From assembly GCA_002328075.1 (NCBI GenBank), contig DCVT01000022.1:9172-73171 (forward strand): a stretch of DNA of 64,000 bases, in the 5' to 3' direction. Made by a program: the position numbers and the translations under genes. Positions 5,280-33,819 of the stretch are shown here, one piece after another. Origin of the DNA: Anaerolineales bacterium UBA2181 (lineage in GTDB: Bacteria; Chloroflexota; Anaerolineae; Promineifilales; UBA4811). Under the pieces are notes generated by a model, which worked only from the letters and a program-made list of their open reading frames with translations, was not told the origin of the DNA and made no database searches. Every line of letters starts with the position of its first letter. Position 1 is the stretch's first letter.

Positions 5280-6617
5280 TTATGGATAGACCCGGTTGAT
5301 CATACGCGGGTACGGAACCGTCTCGCGGATGTGTTTGGTGCCGGTGATCCAGGCGACCGTGCGTTCGACGCCCAAACCAAACCCAGAATGGGGAACACTG
5401 CCGTACTGGCGCAGATCCACGTACCAGGAAAAGGCCTCCGGCGGCAGCTGATGCTCCCGAATCCGCTGTTCCAGGAGGTCGGGGTCGCTGATGCGCTCAC
5501 TTCCACCGGTGATCTCACCGTACCCTTCCGGCGCCAACAGGTCCACACTCTTGCTGACCTCCGGCCGGCCGGGCCAGGGCTCCATGTAAAAAGCCTTGCA
5601 TTGGGTTGGGAATCCGTAAACAAAAACCGGTTTGTCAAACTGCGCGGTGAGCTCGGTCTCGTGCGGCGACCCAAAATCGCTGCCCCACTCTACACTGAGC
5701 AGCTCTTTCAGTTCCGGGTCCTCGGTGCGGGCCTGCACCTCGGCTAACCGGTGCAGCGCGTCATCGTAAGAGATGCGATAGAACGGCGGCGTGACCCGCT
5801 CCAAGGCCCGGATATCCCGCTCGAGCATGGCCAACTCGCTGCGGCGCTCATCCAGGGTCCGCTGGACAATGTAGGAGACAAACTGCTCTTCAATCTCCAT
5901 GAGTTGATCGAGATCGCAAAAGGCGGCCTCGGGCTCTACCATCCAGAACTCGGTCAGGTGACGGCGGGTCTTGGACTTTTCCGCGCGAAACGTGGGACCA
6001 AAGCAGTACACGCGGCCAAAGCTGTAGATATTGGCCTCGTTGTACAACTGACCTGTCTGGGCCAGGTAAGTCGGCTCTCCGAAATAGTCCACCTCAAAGA
6101 GCGTGGTGGTCCCCTCACCGGCTGCCGGGGTAAGGATGGGAGTATCCATGTTGATAAAGCCGTTCTGATCCAGCCATTCCCGGATTGCGCGCACGACGGT
6201 TGCCCGCACGCGCAGGATTGCCCACTGCCGCGAAGACCGTATCCACAAGTGCCGGTTGTCCAGCAGGAATTCGGGACCGTGCTCCTTGGGAGTGATGGGA
6301 TACTCGCCGGCAATCTGCACCAACTGCAGGTCGGTGACTCCCAGTTCATAACCGCCCGGCATTCCAGGCGAGCGATCGTCGGCGCGCACCACCCCAGTGA
6401 CCACCAACGACGACTCCTGGGTCAGACGCCTAGCCGCCTCAAAGACGTCCGCCGGCACGTCCTTTTTGAAAACGACTGCCTGGATGATCCCGGTGCCGTC
6501 GCGGACGCGCAGGAACTGCAATTGGCCCTTTCCGGTTTTCAGCGTCAACCAACCGTGGATGGTCACCGTCTCACCCGGGTAGGACGCGATATCAGCAATA
6601 CGAATCGATCGACTCAT
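5280..6617 (-). CDS. asnS: Asparagine--tRNA ligase
   Basis: 445 aa. N-terminal OB-fold, class II core motifs [21 protein letters not shown] and GSERI, and C-terminal [13 protein letters not shown]...FPR-like end. Length and motifs fit AsnRS better than AspRS. Confidence 0.85.
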
Positions 6618-30092: not shown

Positions 30093-30381
30093 TGGACACT
30101 CCTCTCTCGCCGTTGCCGGCGTGTCAACCGCAGCCCACCAATGGGTACGGCGCGGGCTGATCGGCCAGGTCACCGCGCGCCAGTATAGCAGGCGTGCGGG
30201 CGGCTGCCAATCACAGGGCAGGCCATGGCGTCCTCGGGTTGGCAGTTCACGGTGGTCTGCTGACCTCCAGGCGGTCGGCAATGGCTCACGCGTGCCGGCC
30301 TGTACGCTTCTCCGATTGCCTGCCCGCCGTCACCTGGTACAATGACGCGGTTGGATTCGTTACTGTCCTGGAGGAACGACC

Positions 30382-31083
30382 ATGCAACAGGATTTGTGGA
30401 GACTGCGCCAGGAAAAGCAGTGGACGGTCAACGAGTTGGCGGCACAGTCCGGGGTGCCCGCGCTCTCGATCTACGAATACGAACAAGGCCGCGCTGTGCG
30501 CAGCGCTGACCTTCCCAAGCTTGCCCAGGTGCTGGGGGTCCGGCCGGAAGAGATCAAAACCCAATCGGCGCCCAAACCGCGCAAAGCGCGGCCTGCCGGC
30601 CGGACCGCTGCGCGTCCGGCGTCTCCTGCTCCAGAATTGCAGCCGGCCACCACCACGCAGGTGCAACACCTGGTGGCGCTATCCATTCGGCTGGGGGAAT
30701 CCCGCGAGCACCTGGAGGAAAAGGTCGGGCAACCGTTGGACCGGCTGACGCGAGTGGAGATCAGCAGATGGCTGACGGACTATGCTGCCGCCATCAAGGA
30801 ACGCAAGGCCCAGATTGCCGCCGACCCGGCCGGAGCCAAGCGCTGGCGGGCGCATCTGCCGGAGGGGGTTGACGGGTACGAGTTGACCTACCTGACCGAG
30901 CAACGCAAGGCTGGCCATCCGGTGACCTTTACGCTCTTTGACGGTCAGCGGTTGACCGGCCGAATCCTCGGCTTTGGCCCGTACAGCATCACCATCCGCA
31001 CCGACTCGGGAACGGAGACGACCCTGCAAAAGCTGGCCATTGCCTACTATGCCGTGGCGGCCGGGGGAGACGAGCCGACATGA
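30382..31083 (+). CDS. XRE-type HTH protein with Pro/Ala-rich linker, helical middle domain and C-terminal Sm/Hfq-like domain
   Basis: SD ggagga. N-terminus LRQEKQWTVNELAAQSGVPALSIYEYEQGRAVRSADLPKLAQVLGV is an XRE HTH. C-terminus YLTEQRKAGHPVTFTLFDGQRLTGRILGFGPYSITIRTDSGTETTLQKLAIAYYAV follows the Hfq Sm1 (L-x-N/D-G-x-x-L-x-G-x-I-x-x-F-D/G) and Sm2 (Y-K-H-A-I) pattern. Confidence 0.75.
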   Translation: MQQDLWRLRQEKQWTVNELAAQSGVPALSIYEYEQGRAVRSADLPKLAQVLGVRPEEIKTQSAPKPRKARPAGRTAARPASPAPELQPATTTQVQHLVALSIRLGESREHLEEKVGQPLDRLTRVEISRWLTDYAAAIKERKAQIAADPAGAKRWRAHLPEGVDGYELTYLTEQRKAGHPVTFTLFDGQRLTGRILGFGPYSITIRTDSGTETTLQKLAIAYYAVAAGGDEPT

Positions 31084-31481
31084 GCCTGGGCGACCACCTC
31101 CGGTTTCTCCGTGCCATGAAGGGTGGGGTGGGCACGGCCACCATCGCCCGCGCGATCGGGTTGGAGCGACCGTGGCCCATCAACGAGATCGAGGTCCGTT
31201 ACCGCGAAACCGGCGCTGACGAACTGGTCGGCCGGTTGGCCGAGTACTTGAGCCGGCCGGTAGAGGAGCTATTCTGGCACCGTGAGCGCAGCCGGACAAT
31301 GCTCACTCGGCACATCCAACACGCACTCCAGCACGCTCAACCGATAGTCCTCCACCTGCGCTCGGGCGAGACGCTATCCGGCCTGCCGGCCTGGTGGGAT
31401 CTGGGCAGCATAGGGCTGGTGGTGGAAGGAGAAGCCCAGTTGACCGTGGTGCAGCGGCACGCGGTGATTGACTGGGGCTAG
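31080..31481 (+). CDS. Small protein with degenerate HTH-like N-terminus and Sm/Hfq-like C-terminus, translationally coupled to the preceding gene
   Basis: ATGA start/stop overlap with 30382..31083. N-terminus LGDHLRFLRAMKGGVGTATIARAIGLERPWPINEIE. C-terminus QPIVLHLRSGETLSGLPAWWDLGSIGLVVEGEAQLTVVQRHAVIDW repeats the Sm1/Sm2 pattern. Confidence 0.65.
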   Translation: MSLGDHLRFLRAMKGGVGTATIARAIGLERPWPINEIEVRYRETGADELVGRLAEYLSRPVEELFWHRERSRTMLTRHIQHALQHAQPIVLHLRSGETLSGLPAWWDLGSIGLVVEGEAQLTVVQRHAVIDWG

Positions 31482-32005
31482 GAGCGCGTGGGCGGCGGCG
31501 CCGACCGGCCGGCAAGCCATTGCGCCAAGATCTGGTGCGTGCTGGCAAAGGCGAGTTCGGGTAACTCGTCGGGACCGAAAAAGCGGGCGGCGTCCGCGTC
31601 GTCGGCCGGGCTGAGGGCCTGGGTGAGCGCGCGGCCGGCATAGACAATCAGGATGTCCGCGCCCTCGGCGTGCTCCTGGCCGTAATACAGGTCCACCAGG
31701 CCGGTGATCTCCACCTCCAGTCCGGTCTCCTCGAGGCATTCCCGCGCGGCCGCCAAGCGGGGGTCCTCGCCGCAGTCCACAAAACCACCCGGCAGAGTCC
31801 AGCGGCCGCTGCCCGGGTTCCAGACCCGGCGCACCAAAAGCACCCGGCCATCGTGCTCTACCAGGGCTACCGAAGCCACCTTGGGGTCGCAATAGTGGAC
31901 AAAGTGGCAGGCGGGACAGGCCGGTCGCTCCTTGCTGTTGGCGAGCCGGCTCTCCAGCCGAGCGCCGCACACCGGGCAAAAGCTCATGGGATAGTGCCGG
32001 GCCAT
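31478..32005 (-). CDS. NUDIX hydrolase with N-terminal zinc ribbon
   Basis: Start placed at the ATG at 32005, 2 nt after the anti-sigma stop. CPVCGARL...CPACHFVHY zinc ribbon. Nudix box GGFVDCGEDPRLAAARECLEETGLEV. Confidence 0.8.
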   Translation of the reverse strand: MARHYPMSFCPVCGARLESRLANSKERPACPACHFVHYCDPKVASVALVEHDGRVLLVRRVWNPGSGRWTLPGGFVDCGEDPRLAAARECLEETGLEVEITGLVDLYYGQEHAEGADILIVYAGRALTQALSPADDADAARFFGPDELPELAFASTHQILAQWLAGRSAPPPTRS

Positions 32006-32007
32006 GG

Positions 32008-33000
32008 CTACCACCCGGCGCGACGCGCCAACAGGGTGCCGCCCAGCAGGAGCAAGGCCAGCATCCCGGTTGCCCATCGCGCCAGCGGCTCCCAGTTCAC
32101 CGGCTGGTCCGGCTCTGCCGGCTCGGCCATCAGCGGCGCAAGAGCCTCTTTGGGCGTCGTGGTGTCGACCGGCCTCAGCGCCGGCGTCGTGGCTGGCAGA
32201 GGGCTGATCAATTCCGCAGTGCCGGTGGGGACCGCGTAGGCCTGCTGCGCCAGCTCGGCCGCCGCCGCGGTTGCCGTCATTGTGTCACCCGCCGTTGCGC
32301 CCAACATGCCGTCGCCTGAGTCAGCCGCCTCGGCCGCTGGCGGAGCGGCGGCGACCGCCGCCGCCGTCGGCAGGGGCGCGGCAGTGGACGTCGGCGATGA
32401 GGACTCGGCCGGCGCTCCGGCAACGTTCCTGGCCACGGCTTCCGATTCTGGCGCAACCGCCAGCTCCACCTGCCGCGTCACCGGCACGTGAATTGTGTCG
32501 GCACCCGGTCCTGCCACGGCCTTTTCTGCCGCTGGTTCCGGCGCCTGAAGGCCGAATGTTGTCTCTACAGCTACAACCTGTTCATCGTTGGCTGCCTGCG
32601 GCGCGAATTCCATGGCGACCGACTCGGGAGCCTGGGCCGCCCTGGGGCCAACGCCGGAGGGCAGGGTGCCCGCGGTGATCACCAGGAAAAGCAGCGTGGC
32701 AGCGACGGTGGCTGCCCTCAGAGCCGGATACAGGTGGAGGGACCTGGGCTGCACCCGGGCGTACACCGCCGGATTGAGCGTGAACGACCGCGGCAGCGGG
32801 GCCATTGGTGTGCTGCGCAGCAACCGGACGGTCTGGAGCAGCATTTCGTGCTCGGCCCGAAGCGCTGCGTCCTGCTGCAACCGCGCATTCAGGCGGGCGC
32901 GCTCGTCCGGCCGGAGCGCTCCGTCGATCAGCGCCGATAGCGCCTCACGATCCCGCTCCGTGCTGCTGGTCTTATCCCGCGAAAACCACCTGAACATCAA
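32008..33000 (-). CDS. Anti-sigma factor (two TM segments, Ala/Pro-rich extracytoplasmic region)
   Basis: It starts 2 nt after the ECF sigma stop. The N-terminus LSALIDGALRPDERARLNARLQQDAALRAEHEMLLQTVRLLR is the usual anti-sigma N-terminal helix pattern. TM at ATVAATLLFLVITAG. A low-complexity A/P/T-rich region. Second TM at the extreme C-terminus. Confidence 0.7.
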   Translation of the reverse strand: MMFRWFSRDKTSSTERDREALSALIDGALRPDERARLNARLQQDAALRAEHEMLLQTVRLLRSTPMAPLPRSFTLNPAVYARVQPRSLHLYPALRAATVAATLLFLVITAGTLPSGVGPRAAQAPESVAMEFAPQAANDEQVVAVETTFGLQAPEPAAEKAVAGPGADTIHVPVTRQVELAVAPESEAVARNVAGAPAESSSPTSTAAPLPTAAAVAAAPPAAEAADSGDGMLGATAGDTMTATAAAAELAQQAYAVPTGTAELISPLPATTPALRPVDTTTPKEALAPLMAEPAEPDQPVNWEPLARWATGMLALLLLGGTLLARRAGW

Positions 33001-33001
33001 T

Positions 33002-33622
33002 CTAATCCATCGTGCCTGTTGGCTCGTTCGTCTTGGAGTTAAGACGATACCGGCCGGGGATAAGTTCCCCCTTGCTCCGGAGGCAATCGCGCAGCCGGGC
33101 CCGAGCCCGGCTCAACCGCGATTTGACGGTGCCTAGGGATATCCGCGCGATGGCGGTGATCTCCTCGTAAGAGTACCCCTGAACGTCCGAAAGGATGGCG
33201 GTCATGCGTTGGTCCGGCGGCAGGCGATTCAGGCAATCCTGGATCGCCTGCGCCAGCTCGTTCCGCTGCGCATAGGACTCGGGGGATTCGGTCTGGGCGG
33301 TCAGCGCCGGGTTGGCGTCCTCCTCCACCACATACAGCGCCTCGAGCGAGGTTTGGCGTTGGCGCTGGTGGCGGCGTAGCTCGTCGTAGCAGAGGTTGGT
33401 GGCGATCCGCAAGAGCCAGGCTTTGAACGATCCGCCCTGAAAACGGCGAATGTTCTTGTACGCCCGAATAAACGTATCCTGGGTCGCATCGGCCGCCGAT
33501 TCGCGCTCACCCATCATGCGGTAGGCGAGGTTGTACACCAGGGTCTGGTAGTGCAAGACCAGCGAGTTGAATGCCTGGAGATCACCCCGGCGGGCTTGCT
33601 GAATCAGGGAGGACTCATCCAT
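33002..33622 (-). CDS. ECF-type RNA polymerase sigma-70 family factor
   Basis: Start refined to the ATG at 33622 (MDESSLIQQARRGDLQAFNSLVLHYQ...). Region 2 DATQDTFIRAYKNIRRF and region 4 LSDVQGYSYEEITAIARISLGTVKSRLSRAR. The longer listed ORF reads through the tRNA gene on the other strand. Confidence 0.85.
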   Translation of the reverse strand: MDESSLIQQARRGDLQAFNSLVLHYQTLVYNLAYRMMGERESAADATQDTFIRAYKNIRRFQGGSFKAWLLRIATNLCYDELRRHQRQRQTSLEALYVVEEDANPALTAQTESPESYAQRNELAQAIQDCLNRLPPDQRMTAILSDVQGYSYEEITAIARISLGTVKSRLSRARARLRDCLRSKGELIPGRYRLNSKTNEPTGTMD

Positions 33623-33665
33623 TTGGGTTGACGGAACTACCGATCTCCCGTATACTATGGACCGA

Positions 33666-33748
33666 GCCGAAGTGGCGGAACTGGCAGACGCGCACGACTC
33701 AAACTCGTGTGAGCTTAGCTCGTGTGGGTTCGATTCCCACCTTCGGCA
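33666..33748 (+). tRNA. tRNA-Leu (anticodon CAA), type II with long variable arm
   Basis: Acceptor GCCGAAG/CTTCGGC plus discriminator A. D-arm GCG..CGC. Anticodon stem CACGA/TCGTG with loop CTCAAAC. Variable arm GAGC-TTA-GCTC. T-arm GTGGG-TTCGATT-CCCAC. No encoded CCA. Confidence 0.9.
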
Positions 33749-33819
33749 TGCTATCCGATTATAAACGGCCACCGGCATTGGGGCAAGTCTATTGTGGGGC
33801 TATCGCGGGATAGCCCGGT

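Follow-up and report, generated by a model that had tools for sequence, protein, structure and literature searches.

The A/B gene pair and its genomic setting

The window, meaning the whole 64,000-nt stretch of DNA analysed, carries two same-strand genes, A and B, together with the signals listed below. The two reading frames, the peptides quoted from them and the ATGA overlap at 31080-31083 are all as the earlier note described.

30316..30343, + strand: promoter-like site, TTGCCT, 16-nt spacer and TGgTACAAT (extended -10), from a consensus scan
30369..30374, + strand: Shine-Dalgarno-like GGAGGA, 7 nt 5' of the gene A ATG, by direct reading
30382..31083, + strand: gene A, 233 aa, ATG start, a fusion of XRE-HTH, linker, three-helix domain and Hfq fold
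31080..31481, + strand: gene B, 133 aa, ATG start, a fusion of divergent XRE-HTH and Hfq fold
31080..31083, + strand: ATGA stop/start overlap of A and B, read from the sequence

The codon-position GC content of the pair follows the order GC3 > GC1 > GC2, which is consistent with real coding sequence, and no second Hfq-like gene was found in the window. Upstream of gene A the consensus scan returned two promoter-like sites against 0.3 expected in shuffles, and extended -10 elements resembling that of the window also lie 5' of A in its closest orthologues, L001 and L002; the segment 30316..30343 is, on these sequence grounds, a putative promoter. AAGGAG/AGGAGG is enriched 5' of A across loci. 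The ATGA overlap would be expected to couple the translation of A and B such that both proteins are made together. At the distal end of the pair, a NUDIX gene on the minus strand (31478..32077) converges on B and the two gene ends share 4 nt, an overlap that the earlier note had reported correctly.

The searches yielded 63 homologues for A and 81 for B; the family scans covered 56 A and 69 B members, and the genomic setting was read from 59 Chloroflexota loci, or from 60 loci (these 59 and the window) in the neighbourhood comparison. Conservation of the two genes as neighbours, a check proposed in the earlier note, was found throughout, as B lies directly 3' of A on the same strand in 59/59 loci. 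The 4-nt ATGA/GTGA overlap is present in 53/59, the remaining six displaying gaps of -8 to +4 nt, and it is kept despite the variable C-terminal tail of A. The pair is conserved down to ~35% identity within one phylum and was found only in Chloroflexota. It also occurs in a divergent lineage that has no A middle domain, and the two HTH-Hfq paralogs thus constitute the conserved core. The setting is chromosomal and non-viral. The neighbours differ between genomes and are of housekeeping character (ScpB, TldD/PmbA, thioesterase, NUDIX), so that the context points to no regulated target. The convergent ECF sigma / anti-sigma / NUDIX operon pointed out earlier is present in the window but incidental: a NUDIX gene lies near the pair in 7/60 loci and a sigma factor in 6/60, and a functional link to the operon was therefore rejected as a general feature.

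No operator could be recognised upstream of A, as the 58 upstream regions compared (57 loci and the window) displayed neither a shared k-mer nor palindrome enrichment (115 palindromes versus 114 in controls). The words that are enriched there correspond to the ribosome-binding site and to the 3' coding end of a TldD/PmbA gene lying upstream. In one subclade the leader of gene A contains a conserved stem-loop with compensatory changes; no Rfam family was found near the pair in the window or in the loci with the upstream stem-loop.

Domain organisation of proteins A and B

The two proteins divide into the following segments, which for A include a linker and a middle domain between the HTH and the C-terminal Hfq fold.

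30382..30555, + strand: A residues 1-58, canonical XRE/Cro-C1 HTH (Pfam, family profile)
30556..30651, + strand: A residues 59-90, basic Pro/Ala/Arg/Lys-rich disordered linker (pI 12, low pLDDT)
30652..30822, + strand: A residues 91-147, conserved three-helix domain (AlphaFold2 model, family alignment)
30862..31056, + strand: A residues 161-225, Hfq-fold domain (AlphaFold2, Foldseek, Pfam, family profile)
31080..31289, + strand: B residues 1-70, divergent XRE-type five-helix HTH (family-level matches)
31293..31475, + strand: B residues 72-132, Hfq-fold domain, nearest to the cyanobacterial 'Hfq related' proteins

The clean XRE HTH previously read at the start of protein A scores above the Pfam cutoffs of both HTH_31 (E 2.8e-8, 34.4 bits, cutoff 27) and HTH_3 (E 3.4e-8, 33.8 bits, cutoff 23), and HTH_3 is matched by 56/56 A-family members. 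Through this HTH the A-family profile matches structures of the 434 repressor, and the recognition-helix region displays near-invariance across the family. The Pro/Ala/Arg-rich linker and helical middle domain that had been proposed by eye are both seen in the AlphaFold2 model. Linker residues 71-90 fall to block-mean pLDDT values of 54 and 75; the linker varies in length and sequence within the family, and in the divergent lineage very long Pro/Gly/Arg-rich repeats take its place. The middle domain is formed by helices 91-103, 108-115 and 124-147, modelled at pLDDT ~90, with Q93, H96, L97, G116 and E126 as conserved residues. It is missing in the divergent lineage and present twice in P0058. 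No significant match to it was obtained among Pfam families or PDB sequences, and a possible likeness to DUF3072/Toprim_C_rpt was unsupported, as each was matched by a single member (E 0.15 and 0.03).

The Hfq-fold domain of A comprises a helix (161-177) followed by five strands (180-185, 190-198, 202-207, 212-216 and 220-225) in the AlphaFold2 model, which has a mean pLDDT of 85.5 and a pTM of 0.34 and displays a beads-on-a-string arrangement. The Pfam scores of this domain lie under the 27-bit cutoff for both Hfq PF17209 (E 1.5e-4, 21.8 bits) and Hfq_1 PF21979 (E 1.5e-3, 19.1 bits); at the family level, Hfq is matched at E <= 1 by 42/56 members and the A-family profile matches 3hfn (E 0.0014). 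The best 50 Foldseek matches of the model in the PDB are all Hfq, with RMSD values typically of 0.7-1.1 Å over ~60 residues and target TM scores of 0.74-0.95. The automatic JGI annotation of protein A reads 'XRE-family HTH / sRNA-binding regulator protein Hfq'. Of the short matches that suggested stand-alone A-type Hfq proteins, two were resolved by ORF analysis, both as mis-called starts of full-length fusions.

The N-terminus of B, which the earlier note called degenerate, is indeed divergent, and the window copy gave no HTH match in the Pfam scan, but at the family level it is a true XRE-type HTH. Thus, HTH_31 is matched by 31/69 and HTH_3 by 18/69 B-family members, the B-family profile matches the ICEBs1 Xre regulator 7t8i (E 0.0055) as well as tandem canonical XRE repeat proteins of the representative library, and the HTH retains basic residues that are invariant in the family. 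The Hfq-fold domain of B consists of helix 72-84 and strands 89-93, 98-106, 110-115, 121-125 and 129-132. It scores marginally over the 27-bit cutoff of Hfq_1 PF21979 (E 3e-6, 27.6 bits), a family matched at E <= 1 by 69/69 members, and the B-family profile matches the solved Hfq structures 3hfo, 5szd and 3hfn. In the AlphaFold2 model of B (pLDDT 93.3, pTM 0.83) the HTH packs against the Hfq domain, resulting in one compact unit, and the best 50 Foldseek PDB matches are again all Hfq (RMSD 1.0-2.6 Å).

The C-termini of A and B are therefore both genuine Hfq folds, a conclusion carried by the family-wide HMM matches, the profile matches to solved Hfq structures, the AlphaFold2 models, in which block-mean pLDDT exceeds 90 over most of either Hfq-fold domain, and the Foldseek comparisons. 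This bears out the Hfq/Sm-like C-termini claimed from the sequence by eye, for which HMM and structural similarity is significant in both proteins (Pfam, profiles, Foldseek) and well outside what chance would produce; the Sm-fold check suggested at the time, when run, gave predicted folds of a helix and five strands whose best 50 Foldseek matches are all Hfq. The NCBIfam Hfq models score far under their cutoffs on A and B, and neither the Pfam scan (E <= 10) nor the family-member scans returned a WYL-family match. Only the Hfq domains of A and B align with each other by profile (17% identity, hhalign E 2.4e-5), and BLASTP of A against B gave no significant match. A recent tandem duplication was accordingly discarded, and the low identity points to ancient paralogy, as expected of specialised subunits.

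RNA-contact residues and the possible A/B assembly

Residues of A and B were mapped onto E. coli Hfq by hand, anchored on the HMM alignments. At the corresponding Hfq positions A displays Glu8, Tyr42, Lys56 and Leu57, and B displays Leu8, Asp40, Gly42, Arg56 and His57, each of them invariant or near-invariant in its family. The full proximal uridine pocket (Gln8, Phe/Tyr42, Lys56, His57) is absent from A alone and from B alone, the pocket residues being divided between them, with Tyr42 and Lys56 kept by A and Asp40, Arg56 and His57 by B. The rim positions Arg16, Arg17 and Arg19 are mostly occupied by Gln/Glu/Gly in A and by Leu/Glu/Gly in B. Both families have lost the distal A-tract site (Tyr25, Ile30): Tyr25 has become Thr in A, and in B the position varies. 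The Gly34 of Sm1 is invariant in A and B alike, and the pore-lining Sm2 motif [YF]-K-H-A-[IV] reads Q-R-H-A-V in B, a near match, with R126 in 69/69 and H127 in 67/69 members, and Q-K-L-A-I in A, where K217 is invariant and Leu replaces His. The Hfq-fold domains are near neutral, with a pI of ~6. The loss of the rim arginines and of the distal Tyr25, together with this pI, argues that A and B are not classical chaperones; the loss of these contact residues weakens the description 'RNA-chaperone-like' given earlier.

In the reading that we favour, which is about as likely as not, A and B would constitute one heteromeric, ring-based and multivalent DNA-binding regulator, possibly a nucleic-acid sensor, and not a classical chaperone. 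A and B would be partner subunits in a single chromosomal regulatory complex, produced together through translational coupling. Their Hfq-fold domains would assemble, most likely into an Hfq/Sm-type ring that contains both A and B, through edge pairing of beta4 with beta5. The ring would provide an oligomerisation hub from which several XRE HTH domains and the basic linker of A are presented, allowing multivalent DNA binding, and the complex may act on any, presumptive, target genes as a transcription factor or nucleoid-associated regulator. The central pocket would be composite, with Tyr42 and Lys56 contributed by A and Asp40, Arg56 and His57 by B, and may bind single-stranded nucleic acid or a nucleotide signal, as proposed for the Sm-fold WYL domain in PafBC-type regulators. 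The A/B complex would not be a canonical sRNA-matchmaking Hfq.

The strict adjacency of the genes and their near-constant overlap argue for an obligate A/B partnership and thereby for a heteromeric assembly, the complementary pocket residues favour a mixed one, and the paralogous PafB/PafC heterodimer sets a precedent for an A/B complex. Counting against the ring is the compact model of B, in which the HTH packed on the Hfq domain may obstruct the ring-forming edges, while the lack of operator or palindrome enrichment upstream of A counts against a DNA regulator. A more specific form of the model, that A/B is a heteromeric Hfq/Sm ring (for example A3B3), the first to become known from bacteria, tethered to DNA by six XRE HTH domains and sensing RNA or single-stranded DNA in the composite pocket, is put forward tentatively, as less likely than not.

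The pair could instead be primarily RNA-binding, serving as the Hfq equivalent of these Chloroflexota, with the HTH domains recruiting the ring to DNA or nascent transcripts and so coupling transcription with RNA regulation. This appears unlikely, if still a serious contender. True membership of the Hfq family, beyond mere Sm-likeness, speaks for it, as do the retained Sm2-type motif (QRHAV in B, invariant K217 in A) and the pI 12 linker of A, and the leader stem-loop of the one subclade could be an autoregulatory RNA target. The same idea was put forward by Krupovic et al. for zinc-finger-Hfq fusions (PMC3543421). The divergent lineage fits it better than it fits the favoured reading: that lineage displays RGG/PGG-rich tails and linkers, including RG-rich linker stretches, and its B has a canonical-looking rim patch, 'FLEALKKERRP', in which KKERR is kept, features that suggest RNA binding there. 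In the window lineage, in contrast, the rim arginines and distal Tyr25 are gone, Gln8 is replaced by Glu (A) or Leu (B), Phe42 by Gly (B) and His57 by Leu (A), and the Hfq-fold domains are near neutral. In addition, A and B stand nearest in sequence to the cyanobacterial 'Hfq related' proteins 3hfo and 3hfn, for which poor RNA binding and action through a protein partner have been reported.

A mixed ring might also not form at all, A being a homo-oligomeric DNA-binding regulator and B a co-expressed modulator (antagonist, decoy or anti-repressor) acting by capping A or by competing with it. The divergent HTH of B, without a Pfam match in the window copy, would fit such a role, as would the compact fold of B (pTM 0.83) beside the beads-on-a-string model of A (pTM 0.34) and the distance between their Hfq domains at 17% identity. 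We nevertheless regard it as improbable: the kept 4-nt overlap suggests matched production and not a regulated antagonist, the HTH of B retains invariant basic residues and can be recognised as XRE once the whole family is considered, and the complementary pocket residues are more easily understood under mixed assembly. Finally, the pair could be a module of mobile elements, whether as a cI/Cro-like repressor pair of phage type (the earlier note had entertained a phage-repressor-like module), as toxin and antitoxin or as a regulator of anti-phage defence; this reading is largely refuted and scarcely credible. Although phage repressors and antitoxins typically carry XRE HTH domains, the weak matches of A to phage repressor PHROGs, to the PADLOC models RmrA and capH and to NCBIfam RstR and antitoxin models are all confined to its generic HTH, and B matches no toxin or defence family (Pfam, PADLOC, PHROGs). 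Among 2.9 million viral contigs no relative of A or B came up, and there is no viral structure that matches both domains. No toxin-like partner gene is present, the neighbours are housekeeping genes that vary between genomes, and within one phylum the pair is vertically conserved to ~35% identity.

Hfq is seen as a stand-alone RNA chaperone that forms homohexamers, and it is chiefly through the WYL domain that Sm-fold regulators are known from bacteria. What would be new here is the presence of two specialised Hfq paralogs, each welded to a DNA-binding domain, strictly co-inherited and joined by a conserved stop/start overlap. In the literature on HTH-Hfq fusions or Pfam PF21979 no description of the XRE-Hfq pair architecture was found, and in surveys of Hfq/Sm diversity only the zinc-finger-Hfq precedent was met with; the XRE-Hfq pair thus appears unstudied. 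The broader statement that no architecture combining a DNA-binding domain with an Sm fold had been described was, however, overstated in view of PafBC (PMC6789036), the zinc-finger-Hfq fusions (PMC3543421, PMC3710371) and the JGI annotation. With A/B, bacteria would have their first candidate heteromeric Hfq ring, and the pair would add a new way to build a multivalent transcription factor or nucleoid protein. If true, the heteromeric ring would be a Chloroflexota regulator in which DNA binding and nucleic-acid sensing are physically coupled, and it would parallel in bacteria the way in which heteromeric Sm rings evolved in eukaryotes. Wastewater, sediment and soil are rich in Chloroflexota (Anaerolineae and relatives), whose regulators are, to our knowledge, almost entirely uncharacterised; the pair provides an entry point to their gene regulation.

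Comparison with known HTH, Sm and Hfq systems

WYL regulators are widespread among bacteria and carry a winged HTH, whereas the HTH of A and B is of the XRE/Cro-C1 type. Like PafBC, A and B join a DNA-binding HTH to an Sm fold in one polypeptide and occur as paired paralogs in one operon. PafB and PafC, paralogous proteins with an HTH and an Sm fold that share an operon, function as a heterodimer, and in WYL regulators such as these the beta4/beta5 (Sm2) loop of the Sm-fold domain is the proposed ligand site (PMC6789036). Unlike PafBC, which is built as HTH - WYL/Sm-fold - WCX, A and B have a Sm fold of the bona fide Hfq family, with no WYL match in the above scans and no WCX; both end directly after the Sm-fold domain, and their best structural matches are Hfq, not WYL. 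WYL domains lie at the dimer periphery and form no rings, whereas A and B may form an Hfq-type ring.

The archaeal zinc-finger-Hfq fusions, found on Thermococcus and Methanococcales plasmids (Krupovic et al. 2013; PMC3543421, PMC3710371) and suggested to recruit Hfq to DNA (PMC3543421), share with A and B an N-terminal nucleic-acid-binding domain followed by a C-terminal Hfq-like domain. They are, however, encoded by single genes on archaeal plasmids, 3' of a helicase gene, and carry a C2H2 zinc finger, while A and B are bacterial and chromosomal, carry an XRE HTH and form a coupled pair of two specialised paralogs.

The cyanobacterial Hfq proteins (Synechocystis Ssr3341, 3hfo; Anabaena Asl2047, 3hfn; PF21979 Hfq_1, NCBIfam Hfq_rel_Cyano) are the nearest sequence relatives of the A and B domains and have the same fold, and in them, as in A and B, the canonical RNA-site residues are poorly conserved. 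They are stand-alone proteins of ~70 aa that form homohexamers, in contrast to the A/B domain, which is always found behind an HTH and in two divergent paralogs. With canonical Hfq (E. coli, S. aureus, Listeria, Caulobacter) A and B share the N-terminal helix and bent five-stranded sheet, superposing at 0.7-1.5 Å, as well as the invariant Sm1 Gly34 and a partly kept Sm2 motif. They differ in having no rim Arg patch and no distal Tyr25/Ile30, in a proximal pocket that is incomplete in each protein singly, in the near-neutral charge of the domains, in their fusion to DNA-binding domains, and in being two paralogs where canonical Hfq is one homohexamer gene. In eukaryotic Sm/Lsm heteroheptamers, specialised Sm-fold paralogs form one mixed ring through beta4-beta5 contacts (PMC3710371). 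These rings, which contain seven different subunits and no DNA-binding domains, provide by analogy the template for the hypothesised heteromeric A/B ring.

Domain architecture of proteins A and B

The two ORFs, the peptide segments that the earlier note quoted from each and the ATGA overlap that joins them were confirmed in the window, with a promoter-like site and a ribosome-binding site ahead of gene A.

30382..31083, + strand: gene A, 233-aa ORF
31080..31481, + strand: gene B, 133-aa ORF
31080-31083, + strand: ATGA stop/start overlap of A and B, read from the sequence
30316-30343, ahead of gene A: promoter-like site with an extended -10 (TTGCCT, 16 nt, TGgTACAAT)
Ahead of gene A: GGAGGA ribosome-binding site

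Codon-position G+C in both genes follows the order GC3 > GC1 > GC2, the order that genuine coding sequence should show at a genomic G+C content of 64%. At their 3' ends, B and a convergent NUDIX gene overlap by 4 nt.

The C-terminus of A matches Hfq (PF17209, E 1.5e-4) and Hfq_1 (PF21979, E 1.5e-3) under the curated cutoffs, B lies marginally over the Hfq_1 cutoff (27.6 bits against 27), and among PDB sequences the closest relatives are two cyanobacterial Hfq proteins, 3hfn and 3hfo. At the level of sequence families, these weak single-sequence signals turn solid: Hfq_1 is matched by 69/69 aligned B homologues and Hfq by 42 of the 56 A homologues, and both family profiles find Hfq proteins of known structure from cyanobacteria, Aquifex, Caulobacter and Bacillus. 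For A, the AlphaFold2 model (mean pLDDT 85.5) displays an Hfq part composed of a helix (residues 161-177) followed by five strands (180-225), and B is modelled as a compact unit (pLDDT 93.3, pTM 0.83) with an Hfq helix at 72-84 and five strands. In Foldseek searches against the PDB the top 50 matches were all Hfq for either model, with an RMSD typically of 0.7-1.1 Å over ~60 residues and a target-normalised TM of 0.74-0.95 for A, and an RMSD of 1.0-2.6 Å and a TM of 0.63-0.85 for B. The earlier note had staked its reading on an Sm/Hfq fold at both C-termini, and this fold was found by HMM and by structure alike. The Hfq domains of A and B are old, specialised paralogs (hhalign E 2.4e-5); at just 17% identity, a recent duplication as the origin of the pair is ruled out.

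The N-terminus of A scores above the Pfam cutoffs for HTH_31 (E 2.8e-8) and HTH_3 (E 3.4e-8), the latter matched by 56/56 A homologues, and the HTH occupies residues 1-58 of the model. Its recognition helix is nearly invariant across the family, which would imply a conserved DNA target. In B the HTH domain comprises five helices (residues 3-68). The start of B had been described as a degenerate HTH; its HTH identity stands, while "degenerate" is to be dropped for a true XRE relative, since HTH_31 is matched by 31/69 B-family members and the family profile matches both the ICEBs1 Xre regulator and, when 1.84 billion representative proteins were searched exhaustively, tandem canonical XRE HTH repeat proteins. 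Residues 59-90 of A form a basic linker (pI 12) of low confidence in the model, followed by a confidently modelled three-helix domain at 91-147. The tandem duplication of this domain in P0058, a 295-aa A homologue (columns about 190-300 of the A-family alignment, A1), suggests a modular, independently folding unit.

Conservation and surroundings of the gene pair

Scanning a single genome for each GTDB species with two exact peptide patterns returned at least 59 loci with an A relative, all in Chloroflexota MAGs labelled Anaerolineae, Anaerolineales, Ardenticatenaceae or "Chloroflexia". A B relative follows directly on the same strand in 59/59, so that the two genes are conserved as neighbours, a point on which the earlier note had made its proposal depend. 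The C-terminal tail of A differs in length and sequence among loci, yet the 4-nt ATGA/GTGA junction is kept in 53/59 (in the remaining six the gap ranges from -8 to +4 nt), which argues strongly that translational coupling is under selection. B belongs to a small family, for which the 1.84 billion proteins yield 40 representative clusters at E <= 1e-10. In MAG CWP4-1.bin.112 the pair occurs on two contigs (loci L014 and L017) with near-identical upstream regions, which points either to a recent duplication or to heterogeneous strains within the bin.

Comparison of the loci shows that the neighbourhood beyond the pair is not conserved. The gene seen most often beside the pair is scpB, which encodes a condensin subunit (Pfam SMC_ScpB, E 1e-53). 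It adjoins the pair in 22/59 loci, in 20 of them directly upstream of A and co-oriented with it (e.g. L006:5144-5983) and in two convergent just downstream of B (L003:4496-4885 and L053:982-1416); the window holds no scpB. This recurrent adjacency hints weakly at a role connected with the chromosome or nucleoid. TldD/PmbA, 4HBT thioesterase and other housekeeping genes are next in frequency. ECF sigma, anti-sigma and NUDIX genes recur beside the pair in just 6-7 loci, and their presence next to the window copy is therefore incidental. The 258-aa ECF sigma ORF (33002..33778, minus strand) contains a tRNA-Leu (anticodon CAA; 33666-33748, + strand) within its 5' extension, and public gene calls give a 206-aa protein ending before the tRNA, so that the longer start is spurious. 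Comparison of upstream regions across loci revealed no operator conserved ahead of the gene pair, and autoregulation is thus not supported.

In one Anaerolineae subclade a conserved extended stem-loop lies between scpB and A, 20-30 nt upstream of the gene A ribosome-binding site.

L005:5939-5976, stem-loop
L007:1919-1956, stem-loop
L019:5938-5975, stem-loop
L042:3124-3161, stem-loop
L049:5937-5974, stem-loop
L006, about 5935-5975, stem-loop
L021:2747-2819, stem-loop, longer version

It reads TCACGGTCGGATCGTG, a variable hairpin and CAGATCGGCCGGG; RNAalifold predicts 16 pairs from six sequences, 5 with compensatory changes. The element has no Rfam match and no counterpart in the window, and may represent either a transcript-boundary hairpin or an RNA element of the leader.

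Members of a divergent lineage also possess the pair, at L066:2930-4276 (Chloroflexi bacterium GCA_028287745.1), L064:3255-4732 and L065:360-2050. Here A, up to 448 aa in total, is devoid of the three-helix domain and carries a linker of ~300 aa built from Pro/Gly/Arg-rich tandem repeats (GYEPRPGGPERA and similar), and B combines an RGG-rich low-complexity C-terminal tail with a canonical-looking Hfq rim patch, FLEALKKERRP. Because this pair does without the three-helix domain, the conserved core is two paralogous HTH-Hfq proteins to which the middle domain was added later. Two apparent stand-alone A-type Hfq proteins proved on ORF analysis to be mis-called starts of full-length fusions: P0265 (L066:4001-4276, 91 aa) and P0269 (L069:4001-4354, 117 aa) are public calls from internal starts within true ORFs of 448 and 290 aa, and in L066 a spurious 241-aa ORF was called in another frame across the repeat linker. 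Such truncated calls could make the A family pass for stand-alone Hfq in databases.

Residue sites and the proposed complex

Both families were mapped to E. coli Hfq numbering, anchored on HMM alignments.

Residues of the A and B families at E. coli Hfq positions
Sm1 Gly34: invariant in A; invariant in B
Phe39: Phe, invariant, in A; Trp in B
Asp40: Ser/Gly in A; Asp in 69/69 B
Gln8 (proximal): Glu in 56/56 A; Leu in B
Phe42 (proximal): Tyr in 56/56 A; Gly in B
Lys56 (proximal): Lys in 56/56 A; Arg in 69/69 B
His57 (proximal): Leu in A; His in 67/69 B
Rim Arg16/17/19: lost in A; lost in B
Distal Tyr25/Ile30: lost in A; lost in B

Judged from these alignments, neither A nor B alone presents a complete canonical RNA site, the proximal-pocket residues being split between the two; both Hfq domains are near neutral (pI ~6). 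The Hfq proximal pocket is built at subunit interfaces, and A and B alternating in one ring would therefore account for the split. The β4-β5 subunit interface of Hfq/Sm proteins has been reviewed (PMC3710371).

The best-supported reading, held with moderate confidence, is that A and B form one heteromeric regulatory complex, in which the Hfq-fold domains would drive ring-type oligomerisation and possibly create a composite pocket that binds a nucleic acid or nucleotide, and the XRE HTH domains together with the basic linker of A would confer multivalent DNA binding. The main rival, an RNA-centred function in which Hfq is tethered to DNA, is a tentative option that draws on the RGG-rich regions and rim-like patch of the divergent lineage and on the compensatory changes in the subclade's leader stem-loop. 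A modulator model that places A and B in separate assemblies seems unlikely. A mobile-element origin is highly improbable, as PADLOC and PHROGs matches are limited to generic HTH, no relatives of A or B were found among 2.9 million viral contigs and viral predicted structures gave no match to both B domains together.

Relation to known systems

The earlier note knew of no architecture in which a DNA-binding HTH and an Sm fold share one polypeptide; this novelty does not hold, as WYL-domain regulators are HTH and Sm-fold proteins (PMC6789036) and C2H2 zinc-finger-Hfq fusions of archaeal plasmids have been proposed as a means of recruiting Hfq to DNA (PMC3543421, PMC3710371). Protein A, moreover, is already labelled XRE HTH / Hfq in JGI automatic annotation. 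A full-text literature search returned no description of an XRE-HTH-Hfq fusion or of the A/B gene pair, and among surveys of Hfq/Sm diversity only the zinc-finger-Hfq precedent surfaced, from which the A/B pair is distinct. The paralogs PafB and PafC share an operon and function together as a heterodimer, whose proposed ligand site is an Sm2-like loop (PMC6789036). Like PafBC, A and B are paired paralogous HTH regulators that contain an Sm-fold module. In contrast to the WYL proteins, they possess neither WYL nor WCX domains, carry an XRE instead of a winged HTH and have Hfq as their structural nearest neighbour. The A/B pair stands apart in having a genuine Hfq domain as this module, which could form a heteromeric ring.
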